64,000 nucleotides of DNA from a virus: positions 47,108 to 111,107 of IMG/VR virus record IMGVR_UViG_3300042384_000288, one strand, 5' to 3'. The notes beneath the pieces are model-generated. The model made no database searches. It saw only the letters and a list, made by a program, of their open reading frames with translations, and was not told the origin of the DNA. How positions within the stretch are numbered: position 1 is the first letter of the stretch; the number at the start of each line of letters is the position of its first letter. Positions 20,539 to 20,760 of this stretch are shown piece by piece. The translations under genes and the position numbers were made by a program.

Positions 20539-20689
20539 CACAGTATCCATTGTGATGTTCTTGTTTACCTTTAGCAACCTGATCACGCATTGCTGGTAAA
20601 CTTAGTTTGTGGGTTTTACAAAATTCTGCTAAATTATTGGTCTGCTCAATGTTATAATACCAATGGGTGTATTTGTTTGTTAAATACAT
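20516..20689 (-). pseudogene. Internally deleted homing-endonuclease relic (57 aa)
   Basis: MYLTNKYTHWYYNI matches the N-terminus of the HNH at 5691..6368 (MIFINNKYTNIYYNI) and is fused directly to a C-terminal helix-turn-helix-like tail (NNLAEFCKTHKL...QVAKGKQEHHNGY); no nuclease core. Confidence 0.7.
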
Positions 20690-20760
20690 TTGCTGATGCT
20701 CCTTTACAAGCGTTAGAGTAGTTGGATATGTCGAGTATCGCGAACTACACTTATATTTAT
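20681..20760 (+). ncRNA. Candidate structured cis-antisense RNA/leader of homing endonuclease (copy A)
   Basis: TAAATA, then hairpins CTGATGCT-CCTTTACA-AGCGTTAG and GTAGTTGGATA-TGTCGAG-TATCGCGAACTAC, then TATTTAT; near-identical covarying copy at 35384..35459. Confidence 0.6.

Follow-up and report, generated by a model that had tools for sequence, protein, structure and literature searches.

A covarying two-hairpin cassette with facing late-promoter-like boxes ahead of unrelated homing-endonuclease genes in uncultured jumbo lake phages

Homing endonucleases need low and well-timed expression, and the control of free-standing ones is known for only a few T-even genes. Face-to-face promoters with an antisense RNA between them are familiar from P22 sar/ant and IS10 RNA-OUT/RNA-IN, where the two promoters lie close together and an antisense RNA that is structured and some 70 nt long, with its recognition loop atop a stem, covers the ribosome binding site (RBS) and the start of a gene whose product is kept low. 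Those are single loci with sigma-70 promoters and proven transcripts; they are unrelated in sequence to the cassette described here, whose transcripts are only predicted. The endonuclease genes I-TevI, I-TevII, I-TevIII, segB and mobE of the T-even phages and Aeh1 have a late box upstream and a hairpin that holds the Shine-Dalgarno (SD) sequence, the presumed purpose being to limit nuclease expression; there the late promoter lies inside the hairpin, and late transcripts lose the inhibitory arm (PMC2988022). Dassa et al. (2009) noted 5'-UTR hairpins and TATAAATA before free-standing GIY-YIG and Vsr-like genes in the "fractured gene" loci of the GOS ocean metagenome; that paper interprets the hairpin as acting on translation from the sense strand, and antisense RNA is not mentioned in it (PMC2677866). 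In the T4-like cyanophage S-PM2, Millard et al. (2010) experimentally detected an antisense RNA, CfrI, over a homing endonuclease gene; it is described as about 225 nt long and linking the endonuclease gene to psbA (as recounted in PMC2984593). The PeSL of T4-type phages are small regulatory motifs, each an early promoter plus a terminator stem-loop with no tie to endonucleases, that travel with variable ORFs, mark exchange points and mediate modular shuffling (PMC2839356, PMC4122927).

The cassette analyzed here resembles each of these systems in part. It shares the upstream late box, the SD hairpin and the presumed purpose with the T-even/Aeh1 genes, but its box lies 5 nt upstream of the first hairpin; in addition it folds better on the antisense strand, has a conserved second box that faces the first, and is mostly not embedded in a co-oriented early unit. 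The loci of Dassa et al. have in common with it unrelated endonucleases, a shared upstream hairpin, a late box and two mutually pairing motifs, and the two elements may be the same (PMC2677866). The cassette is itself present in one GOS contig (AACY020485633.1), which is not a fractured-gene locus. CfrI, as reported, is not a portable 5' module common to several families, and no sequence relation between it and the cassette was found. Like PeSL, the cassette is a small conserved motif that accompanies variable ORFs, and its antisense strand has stem-loops followed by a putative sigma-70 promoter in 30 of 149 copies, but the cassette has late boxes and an RBS hairpin in place of the early promoter and terminator. 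The preliminary description of this element did not recognize it as a catalogued family. This holds for Rfam 15, in which the window finds no match at the gathering score and the two elements none at E values up to 10, but hairpins with a late promoter before such genes had been noted in 2009 (PMC2677866). Both copies are without blastn matches among the GenBank phages, and no tRNA or tmRNA was found.

The window, by which we mean the whole 64,000-nucleotide stretch analyzed, contains the element on the minus strand at 20760-20681 (copy A) and on the plus strand at 35384-35459 (copy B), as read off the sequence; the preliminary description of an element of about 80 nt had both its positions and its layout right. 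These are the only two cassette copies in the phage's own 111-kb contig, and they are 79% identical over 84 nt (E 1.9e-11 in that contig). Table 1 lists their parts. The two hairpins, H1 and H2, differ between the copies by the paired stem changes first reported (GTAGTT/AACTAC versus GTAGTC/GACTAC and GCT/AGC versus ATA/TAT), which are real, as are the three A.C positions: two of these are in H2 of copy A and one is in H2 of copy B. On the plus strand the H2 stem of copy A is complete, its 8 bp including two G.U pairs. Predicted folding energies of the window copies are -18.1 and -18.4 kcal/mol for the antisense RNAs (z about -2.15) and -10.6 and -11.7 kcal/mol for the sense RNAs. Two other structural candidates, a hammerhead-like core (antisense CUGAUG) and a kink-turn in H1, were dropped: junction strands vary, the GA/AG pairs needed are missing, and there is no Rfam match.

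Table 1. Parts of the two cassette copies in the window, with the associated genes and the outward promoter (promoter assignments and transcript starts are predictions)
Feature	Position	Strand	Remarks
Copy A ATAAATA	20760-20754	minus	
Copy A sense late-promoter box	20754..20761	-	GATAAATA; predicted +1 = G20748, first H1 base
Copy A hairpin H1	20718..20748	-	outer GTAGTT/AACTAC, internal loop CGC/C, inner GATA/TATC
Copy A hairpin H2	20693..20716	-	CTAACGCT/AGCATCAG; AAGGAG in loop and 3' arm
Copy A ATG	20689-20687	minus	
Copy A TATTTA	20686-20681	minus	
Copy A facing box TTAAATA	20680..20686	+	overlaps relic-ORF codons 2-3; predicted antisense +1 = G20692, one base ahead of H2' stem
Gutted HNH homing-endonuclease ORF, 57 aa	20516..20689	-	N-terminal 14 aa joined to C-terminal tail; without nuclease core
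Outward-facing perfect sigma-70 promoter	35344..35372	-	TTGACA-17-TATAAT with TG; 11 nt from copy B
Copy B ATAAATA	35384-35390	plus	
Copy B sense late-promoter box	35383..35390	+	GATAAATA; predicted +1 = G35396
Copy B hairpin H1	35396..35425	+	outer GTAGTC/GACTAC, internal loop CAC/C, inner GATA/TATC
Copy B hairpin H2	35427..35448	+	CTAACATA/TATGTCAG; AAGGA (35435-35439) in loop; one sense A.C mismatch
Copy B ATG	35451-35453	plus	
Copy B TATTTA	35454-35459	plus	
Copy B facing box TTAAATA	35454..35460	-	overlaps codons 2-3; predicted antisense +1 at 35449
Intact homing-endonuclease gene, 215 aa	35451..36098	+	GIY-YIG-like N-terminal motif and NUMOD3

Behind copy A the nuclease core has been lost, as the preliminary description said: residues 1-14 of the remaining ORF align with the N-terminal ends of HNH (PF01844) relatives of full length, and residues 19-54 match the final ~35 residues of other family members. 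The DNA inserted with this copy runs from about 20539 to 20778, from the stop codon of an SGNH-hydrolase gene to the ATG of a carbamoyltransferase gene, and in two relatives (L243 and L234) the empty site is TAAATG, with stop and start overlapping. The gene behind copy B has its true start at ATG 35451 (MYLT), 11 nt past AAGGA. Its earlier naming as a GIY-YIG gene is not repeated by Pfam, among whose families NUMOD3 alone matches (E 1.3e-6); the protein does match PHROG 314 "homing endonuclease" (E 8.9e-24) and contains the motif YVYKW...WYIGS, and it has no sequence match among solved structures.

The cassette belongs to a family, of which the gathered IMG/VR loci contain 154-168 distinct copies. 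Its recurrence is no accident, since exact-pattern scans gave >110 and >120 IMG/VR loci, and >120 metagenome contigs. Its layout over about 85 bases is TAAATA, 5 nt, H1, 1 nt, H2 (which holds the RBS), about 6 nt, and TATTTA. One complete relative of 329 kb has nine copies and three other complete relatives have none. The genes headed by the cassette encode HNH, HNH_3, HNH_5, GIY-YIG, SegE-like, NUMOD3, DUF559, Vsr-like and other proteins, which bears out the original proposal of a portable module common to unrelated endonucleases; leader-only remnants and gutted genes also occur within the family. No conserved 3' end of the cassette was found, in that no 8-mer is common to more than 9 of 129 downstream regions. 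We take the cassette to be a 5' control element of free-standing homing-endonuclease genes in a clade of uncultured jumbo lake phages (~330-345 kb) that appear to use T4-type late promoters.

Both hairpins covary across the family alignment. For H1, double changes number 70, 66 and 18 within the inner stem and 12 within the outer one, 276 cells are changed on both sides, and none of 500 shuffles reaches the observed level. The two strands differ greatly in how they accommodate variation: there are 299 A.C cells, able to pair on the antisense strand alone, versus 7 G.U cells, for which only the sense strand allows pairing, and 97.9% of cells are paired on the antisense strand versus 89.7% on the sense strand, although these cell counts exceed the true number of independent events because the sequences are related by descent and exchange. 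The bias persists in 86 rows that were not selected on their H2 sequence. Among 44 distinct H2 haplotypes, 30 have at least two A.C cells and only two have any G.U, and the pair at columns 55-80 varies inside 15 of 79 lineage groups. The antisense fold is the more stable in 144 of 154 copies, with a mean margin of 4.0 kcal/mol, so the larger alignment agrees with the initial claim, made from two copies, that the fold favors the antisense RNA; for H2, whose loop and 3' arm contain the SD, the mean energies are -2.55 kcal/mol (sense) and -5.72 kcal/mol (antisense). This pattern of sequence variation points to structural selection on the strand opposite the gene.

The boxes at the two ends behave differently from the hairpins. 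Neither was required by the search; of 168 copies, 166 have TAAATA no more than 15 nt upstream of H1 and 163 have TAYTTA. The stretch from one box to the other takes in both the SD and the ATG. The sense box is 5 nt from H1 in 142 of 154 copies, so that the predicted sense +1 is the first base of H1, with the box outside and both hairpins downstream of +1. At the other end TATTTA is 5-7 nt from H2 in 150 of 154, a distance that is fixed regardless of whether the ATG stands 0, 1 or 2 nt before TATTTA, that is, in three reading frames. Unlike the freely varying hairpins, the boxes are nearly invariant and without compensatory changes, and so they look like facing T4-type late-promoter boxes and not like the two sides of a helix. 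The AC/GC variants of the family match an a/gC late-box variant known in phage Aeh1 (PMC2988020). The facing box is a full ATAAATA in 60% of copies, GTAAATA in 27% and TTAAATA in 10%; the last, which is the form of both facing boxes in the window, is a weaker match to the consensus and, outside cassettes, the least enriched between genes of the four variants. Elsewhere in these genomes the box is distributed like a promoter: 14 of the 28 occurrences of NATAAATA in a contig with a coding share of 94% fall between genes, and the motif stands just upstream of ORFs, while over 2.5 Mb 53% of ATAAATA sites are intergenic. The phage's own contig and two complete relatives contain a gp55-like segment. 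The spacer that follows the sense box is rich in A and G and nearly free of C, unlike 262 other box sites, which gives the antisense strand a U/C-rich tail after H1', in the form ACYWW-UAUUUAU. A simple scan for intrinsic terminators found none behind H1' or behind the gene, and the ends of metagenome contigs, among which any RNA-derived records would be indistinguishable, show no pile-up at the predicted starts.

The explanation we favor, to which we assign a probability of about 0.5, is that of two facing late boxes and an antisense RNA that damps the nuclease; as far as the sequence can tell, the cassette probably yields a small antisense RNA that restrains the endonuclease it precedes. The late box, NATAAATA or RCTAAATA, would start the mRNA at the first base of H1, and H2 of that mRNA would carry the RBS in a hairpin kept weak by the conserved A.C mismatches. 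The second TAAATA, over codons 2-4, would start the opposite transcript one base before H2'. This transcript of about 75 nt would consist of two solid hairpins, the first with the anti-SD CCUU in its loop, followed by a pyrimidine-rich stretch ending in UAUUUAU, and it would be fully complementary to the leader, RBS and start codon of the nuclease mRNA. Pairing with the mRNA, promoter collision or both would then damp or delay nuclease output. From these features we infer the firing of both boxes, the two ends of each transcript and a repressive effect on the nuclease. The element itself is confirmed as it was first described, and its interpretation as an antisense switch is partly supported. 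Because both predicted promoters are of the late class, a timing switch is not obvious. The simple terminator scan being empty after H1', the transcript may not be a discrete small RNA; and since most cassettes face against their neighbors, read-through should in any case supply antisense leader RNA, on which the fold might act. That the cassette is a self-contained two-promoter RNA switch, swapped among homing endonucleases of at least five families, we consider quite doubtful. On that reading, since the sliding clamp that activates T4-type late promoters moves along the DNA from nicks and forks, two facing boxes could tie the ratio of sense to antisense transcripts to the state of replication. 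The cassettes of a single genome (up to 9) have near-identical H1 stems and flanks, so the antisense RNA of one could act on the others and all the resident nucleases of a genome could be braked together, and gutted copies such as that at 20516-20689 might be retained as pure antisense producers.

The orientation of the cassettes raises the alternative that the features of the antisense strand serve the phage. Among the cassettes for which crude ORF calling gave both neighbors, 62 run opposite to the two and 26 are co-oriented, so that about 70% are opposite, including both in the window; the upstream neighbor is divergent in 91 of the 131 copies with one called. Given this, and the outward sigma-70 promoters of some copies, the antisense-strand features could act for the neighboring gene: outward signals that keep the downstream gene on would be supplied by the facing late box, by a processing site or structured leader and, in some copies, by a sigma-70 promoter, and the fold would be a leader or insulator of the neighbor's mRNA. 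An outward TTGAC-N16-19-TAnnnT lies 8-20 nt from the 30 copies mentioned above, versus 4 in the control direction. Copy A is inserted exactly at the stop/start overlap, with the carbamoyltransferase gene beginning about 10 nt past it and having no promoter of its own in view. The promoter beside copy B, predicted to drive a 101-aa ORF at 35317..35012, apparently came with the cassette, since it is absent from a cassette-free relative (L315). Late boxes also stand face to face between divergent genes elsewhere in this phage, and T4 endonuclease cassettes are known to carry promoters for neighboring genes (PMC2988022). Nonetheless we judge this explanation unlikely, because the facing box and the fold bias are kept equally well in the 40 copies whose upstream neighbor is co-oriented, and which have no gene to serve, as in those with a divergent one; moreover, stems of nearly invariant sequence are needless in a simple leader, and the anti-SD loop and the full complementarity to the nuclease start in a fixed frame are left unexplained.

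A classical T4 leader that works on the sense strand alone would need only the late promoter, an H1 that stabilizes the 5' end and an H2 that gates the RBS, with the A.C positions keeping H2 weak or forming protonated A+.C pairs, and with TATTTA as an mRNA signal or as a partner of TAAATA that masks the start in read-through transcripts. Late promoters with RBS hairpins are, after all, the documented control of the five T-even/Aeh1 genes named above (PMC2988022), the ocean-metagenome hairpins with TATAAATA before GIY-YIG and Vsr-like genes were taken in this way (PMC2677866), and transcription is predicted to start at the first base of H1. We nevertheless consider a purely sense-strand leader quite unlikely. 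The defining T4 feature is missing, as the box is outside both hairpins and late transcripts would retain them; the mismatches are nearly all A.C, whereas a mere weakening of the stem would permit any mismatch; and no sense read-through is expected from the many divergent upstream neighbors. The TAAATA/TATTTA closing helix, although RNAfold draws it for copy A, was rejected: 150 sequences contain no compensatory change, no G on the 3' side answers the a/gC variants of the 5' box, and the sole variant there, TACTTA, adds another A.C. Finally, the element might act as DNA, as a PeSL-like site of recombination or exchange for endonuclease ORFs or as a protein-binding site, with its conservation due in part to gene conversion. 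At least five endonuclease families have the module at their head, with its end in codons 2-4, which suggests exchange at the junction, the remnants and gutted genes would fit, and PeSL offer a precedent for such shuffling (PMC2839356, PMC4122927). But double-stranded DNA has no reason to favor G.T-compatible over A.C-compatible changes on one strand, and stems kept by compensatory changes while loops are free point to a single-stranded fold, so an element that acts only as DNA appears very improbable.

Throughout a clade of giant lake phages, many unrelated endonuclease families have taken up one small module. Some of these cassettes seem to bring an outward promoter with them, which would limit the damage done when they insert in reverse orientation into an operon. 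Should the antisense RNA exist, no earlier widespread RNA family in lytic phages would have had the restraint of selfish nucleases as its task; it would also be a clear case in nature of a portable convergent-promoter switch, and it would provide a marker for endonuclease cassettes and their remnants in metagenomes.

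The window carries two copies of a control cassette of about 85 bases, each at the head of a homing endonuclease gene or its remains, and these match at 79% over 84 nt (E 1.9e-11), so the two stretches paired in the preliminary description are indeed copies of one element. They are the sole copies in the phage's own 111-kb contig (the IMG/VR record, estimated to be 32% complete). As had been observed, both consist of ATAAATA, five bases, a hairpin (H1), one base, a second hairpin (H2), about six bases that include the ATG, and TATTTA. H1 has an outer stem GTAGTY/RACTAC, an internal loop of CRC versus C, and an inner stem whose loop varies; H2 has CTAAC plus 3 bp on its 5' side, 3 bp plus (A)TCAG on its 3' side, and AAGGA(G) in its loop and 3' arm.

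Features of the cassettes and their surroundings
Feature	Sequence	Position	Strand
Copy A	Window	20760 to 20681	minus
Copy B	Window	35384 to 35459	plus
Outward promoter beside copy B	Window	35344-35372	minus
101-aa ORF beyond that promoter	Window	35317..35012	
Hairpin AAAGCG/CGCTTT	Window	36099-36140	
SGNH-hydrolase gene end	Window	20490-20538	
Fresh carbamoyltransferase start	Window	20770-20790	
Face-to-face ATAAATA boxes	G000:C1 (phage's own contig), outside window	10330-10364	
Segment resembling T4 gp55	G000:C1, outside window	18539-18739	
Back-to-back cassettes	G001:C1 (complete 329-kb relative)	69118-69200	minus
		69487-69567	plus
Cassette remnant	L222 (related locus)	about 1136	
Cassette with shifted start codon	L068 (related locus)	about 7090	minus
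Carbamoyltransferase match	L244, L245, L246 (related loci)	2501-4729	

Copy B precedes an intact gene for a 215-aa homing endonuclease that matches PHROG 314 (E 8.9e-24) and NUMOD3, with a GIY-YIG-like motif at its N-terminus. The copy A ORF has 57 aa; residues 1-14 correspond to the N-termini of full-length relatives with HNH (PF01844), and residues 19-54 correspond to the C-terminal ~35 residues of other family members. Judged by these separate matches it is a gutted gene that lacks the nuclease core between the two parts, the HNH relic that had been proposed. Such relics recur, since 9 of 143 complete ORFs behind the cassette are shorter than 60 aa. There are also remnants of the cassette itself (related loci L178, L216, L222 and L224), in which nothing but the late box and all or part of H1 is left before unrelated sequence, and variants (L068, L189, L196) whose start codon has shifted upstream into the H2 3' arm (MFSNTIY or MSSNTIY), the CAGCAAT-ACTATTTAT bases still being kept as coding sequence. 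In the window the endonuclease and AAA-ATPase genes converge on a hairpin flanked by T-rich sequence at either side, which may be a two-way terminator; the hairpin's loop of 10 nt is the reason that a simple terminator scan missed it.

Searches of IMG/VR with two exact patterns, each taken from only one half of the cassette, gave >110 and >120 loci, and the conservation is not a product of the search because each set keeps the other half. From these, 154 distinct full copies were parsed (168 when TATTTA was not required), and a metagenome scan found at least 120 contigs with the module, one GOS record among them. With a covariance model of the cassette, a complete relative of 329 kb yields nine copies and three further complete relatives (338-345 kb) yield none, a patchy presence such as mobile cassettes would give. 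Two of the cassettes in the 329-kb genome stand back to back, about 290 bp apart. The 134 ORFs examined behind the module have NUMOD3 (42), HNH (15), HNH_3 (13), HNH_5 (10), GIY-YIG (6), SegE-type GIY-YIG (4), I-TevI DNA-binding (4), DUF7487, DUF559/Vsr-like and other domains, a range which bears out the claim that unrelated endonucleases share it.

Pairs were counted under our stated structure in an alignment of 150 cassettes, where the share of paired cells is 89.7% for the sense strand (that of the nuclease gene) and 97.9% for the antisense strand. Both hairpins covary, as had been claimed from the two copies: 276 cells are changed on both sides versus 87 in shuffles, none of 500 shuffles reaches the observed value, and the signal is lost when the pairing partners are slid. 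In H1 the inner stem has 70, 66 and 18 double changes and the outer stem 12, and each H2 pair has 10 to 32. The preliminary description had taken as decisive whether G-U pairs favor the antisense strand in a larger alignment, and they do so strongly, with 299 A.C cells (paired on the antisense strand only) versus 7 G.U cells (paired on the sense strand only). Pair 53-82 is A.C in 149 of the 150 rows, and pair 55-80 is C.A in 90, T-A in 33 and C-G in 18, as would be expected if the opposite strand held a G.U wobble; the latter pair varies inside 15 of 79 groups with the same H1 inner hairpin, so its changes arose repeatedly. The bias is also present in 86 rows unselected on H2 sequence, and among 44 distinct H2 haplotypes 30 have two or more A.C and 2 have any G.U. 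By RNAfold, 144 of 154 copies have a more stable core on the antisense strand, the mean difference being 4.0 kcal/mol; the window copies fold at -18.1 and -18.4 kcal/mol antisense versus -10.6 and -11.7 sense. TCTAAC and ATCAGC make up the base of an antisense-strand stem of 8 bp, which accounts for their conservation.

The boxes outside the hairpins are still more constant. TAAATA precedes H1 in 166 of 168 copies and TAYTTA follows H2 in 163 (not required by the search), with spacings of 5 nt in 142 of 154 copies and 5-7 nt in 150 of 154, respectively. The 3' spacing is kept while the ATG sits 0, 1 or 2 nt ahead of TATTTA, and since the same six bases are thereby read in three frames (MYL, MIFI and M-x-IY) the constraint must be on DNA or RNA, not protein. 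The two boxes are reverse complements, and a helix between them was considered and rejected: there is no compensatory change in 150 sequences while the neighboring hairpins vary freely, and a/gC variants of the 5' box lack a matching G opposite. Invariant sequence and fixed spacing would fit recognition as promoter boxes. Of 28 NATAAATA sites in the phage's own contig, 14 fall within the 6% that is non-coding and lie mostly 5-50 nt upstream of co-oriented ORFs; in 2.5 Mb of related loci, cassettes excluded, the intergenic share is 53% for ATAAATA, 30% for CTAAATA, 27% for GTAAATA and 20% for TTAAATA. The T4 late box occupies -13 to -6, and if the box here does likewise the predicted sense start is the first G of H1 and the predicted antisense start is the G opposite the conserved C of CAGC, one base before the first antisense hairpin (H2'). 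In T4 late promoters a box of 8 bp precedes the start by about one helical turn, and in Aeh1 a/gC replaces TA at -13/-12 (PMC2988020), with which the AC and GC box variants of 21 of 154 family members agree. The phage's own contig and two complete relatives each encode a stretch of about 70 residues that resembles T4 gp55, the late sigma (36-40% identity, E about 1e-5). In G000:C1, L308 and L310 this gp55-like segment lies within ORFs of about 290-320 aa, far longer than T4 gp55 (185 aa). Between divergent ORFs of the same contig two ATAAATA boxes face each other only about 27 nt apart, so overlapping late leaders occur in this phage outside endonuclease cassettes as well.

We give about an even chance (roughly 0.5) to the reading that the cassette is a late-promoter nuclease leader with a facing-box antisense RNA that lowers nuclease output. 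The sense box would give a nuclease mRNA with a 5'-terminal hairpin, whose weak H2 would leave the ribosome-binding site usable. From the facing box, an antisense RNA would begin at the foot of H2' and form two firm hairpins, the first with CCUU in its loop; it would be complementary to the start codon and the entire leader. Its pairing, with or without collision of polymerases from promoters that lie about 90 bp apart, would keep nuclease output low. The second antisense hairpin (H1') is followed by ACYWW-UAUUUAU, a pyrimidine-rich tail that reflects a sense spacer very rich in A/G and nearly without C compared with 262 other box sites, and this tail may mark the 3' end of the antisense RNA; a simple terminator scan after H1' found no terminator. 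The antisense-switch interpretation in the preliminary description is thus partly supported: the antisense-favored fold, the covariation and the near-invariant facing box agree with it, but the facing box is the full ATAAATA in only 60% of copies and is TTAAATA in both window copies, which weakens the case, and a role in timing is not evident because both putative promoters are of the late class.

A pure sense-strand leader of the T4 kind is an unlikely explanation, since the box here lies outside the hairpins, contrary to the defining feature of such leaders, and the near-exclusive A.C mismatches tell against it. A DNA-only exchange site cannot explain the strand-specific wobble pattern. The main rival, judged unlikely, is that the antisense-strand features serve the neighboring phage gene and not the nuclease. 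Cassettes opposite to both neighbors outnumber co-oriented ones 62 to 26 (by crude ORF calling), and both window copies are so placed. At the copy A site the SGNH-hydrolase stop and carbamoyltransferase start overlap as TAAATG in the cassette-free L243 and L234, and in the window about 240 bp of cassette DNA sit exactly between the two, the carbamoyltransferase starting about 10 nt past the sense box. At the copy B site the cassette-free L315 has the ATPase stop, a terminator hairpin and then the ATG of a 101-aa ORF; in the window a perfect sigma-70 promoter (TTGACA-17-TATAAT, extended TG) 11 nt from the cassette points outward to that ORF. Such a motif lies 8-20 nt away in 30 of 149 copies versus 4 in the control direction, so cassettes bring outward promoters with them, as a T4 review anticipated (PMC2988022). 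Against service to the neighbor, the facing box and fold bias are equally kept in 40 copies whose upstream neighbor is co-oriented.

The copy A locus has a further peculiarity. The end of the hydrolase gene in the window holds ATGAACATATTAGG (MNILG), the overlapping carbamoyltransferase start of most relatives; in the window, L234 and L243 a longer hydrolase is followed by a new carbamoyltransferase start. The start region is therefore duplicated, in L243 with no cassette present. In L244, L245 and L246 the carbamoyltransferase match spans about 2.2 kb versus the usual 1.5 kb, which indicates a ~730-bp insertion inside the gene that could be an intron, intein or endonuclease.

The novelty claimed for the element stands in part. 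No Rfam family matches it, even at E 10, and blastn with both copies found no cultured phage in GenBank that carries it, but similar hairpins in GOS data had been described: Dassa et al. 2009 (PMC2677866) reported free-standing GIY-YIG and Vsr-like endonuclease genes preceded by hairpins, TATAAATA and two conserved motifs complementary to each other, and interpreted the hairpins as translational. That hairpin, compared by description only, may well be H1 of the present module. The antisense-favored fold, the second box at fixed spacing, the breadth of the family and the outward promoter appear new. In P22 sar and IS10 RNA-OUT antisense pairing keeps target output low, as we propose for the cassette RNA. 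For a homing endonuclease gene of cyanophage S-PM2, an overlapping antisense RNA has been detected (PMC2984593). The cassette would combine two known kinds of control, that of endonucleases by late promoters and hairpins and, through its predicted antisense transcript, cis-antisense control.
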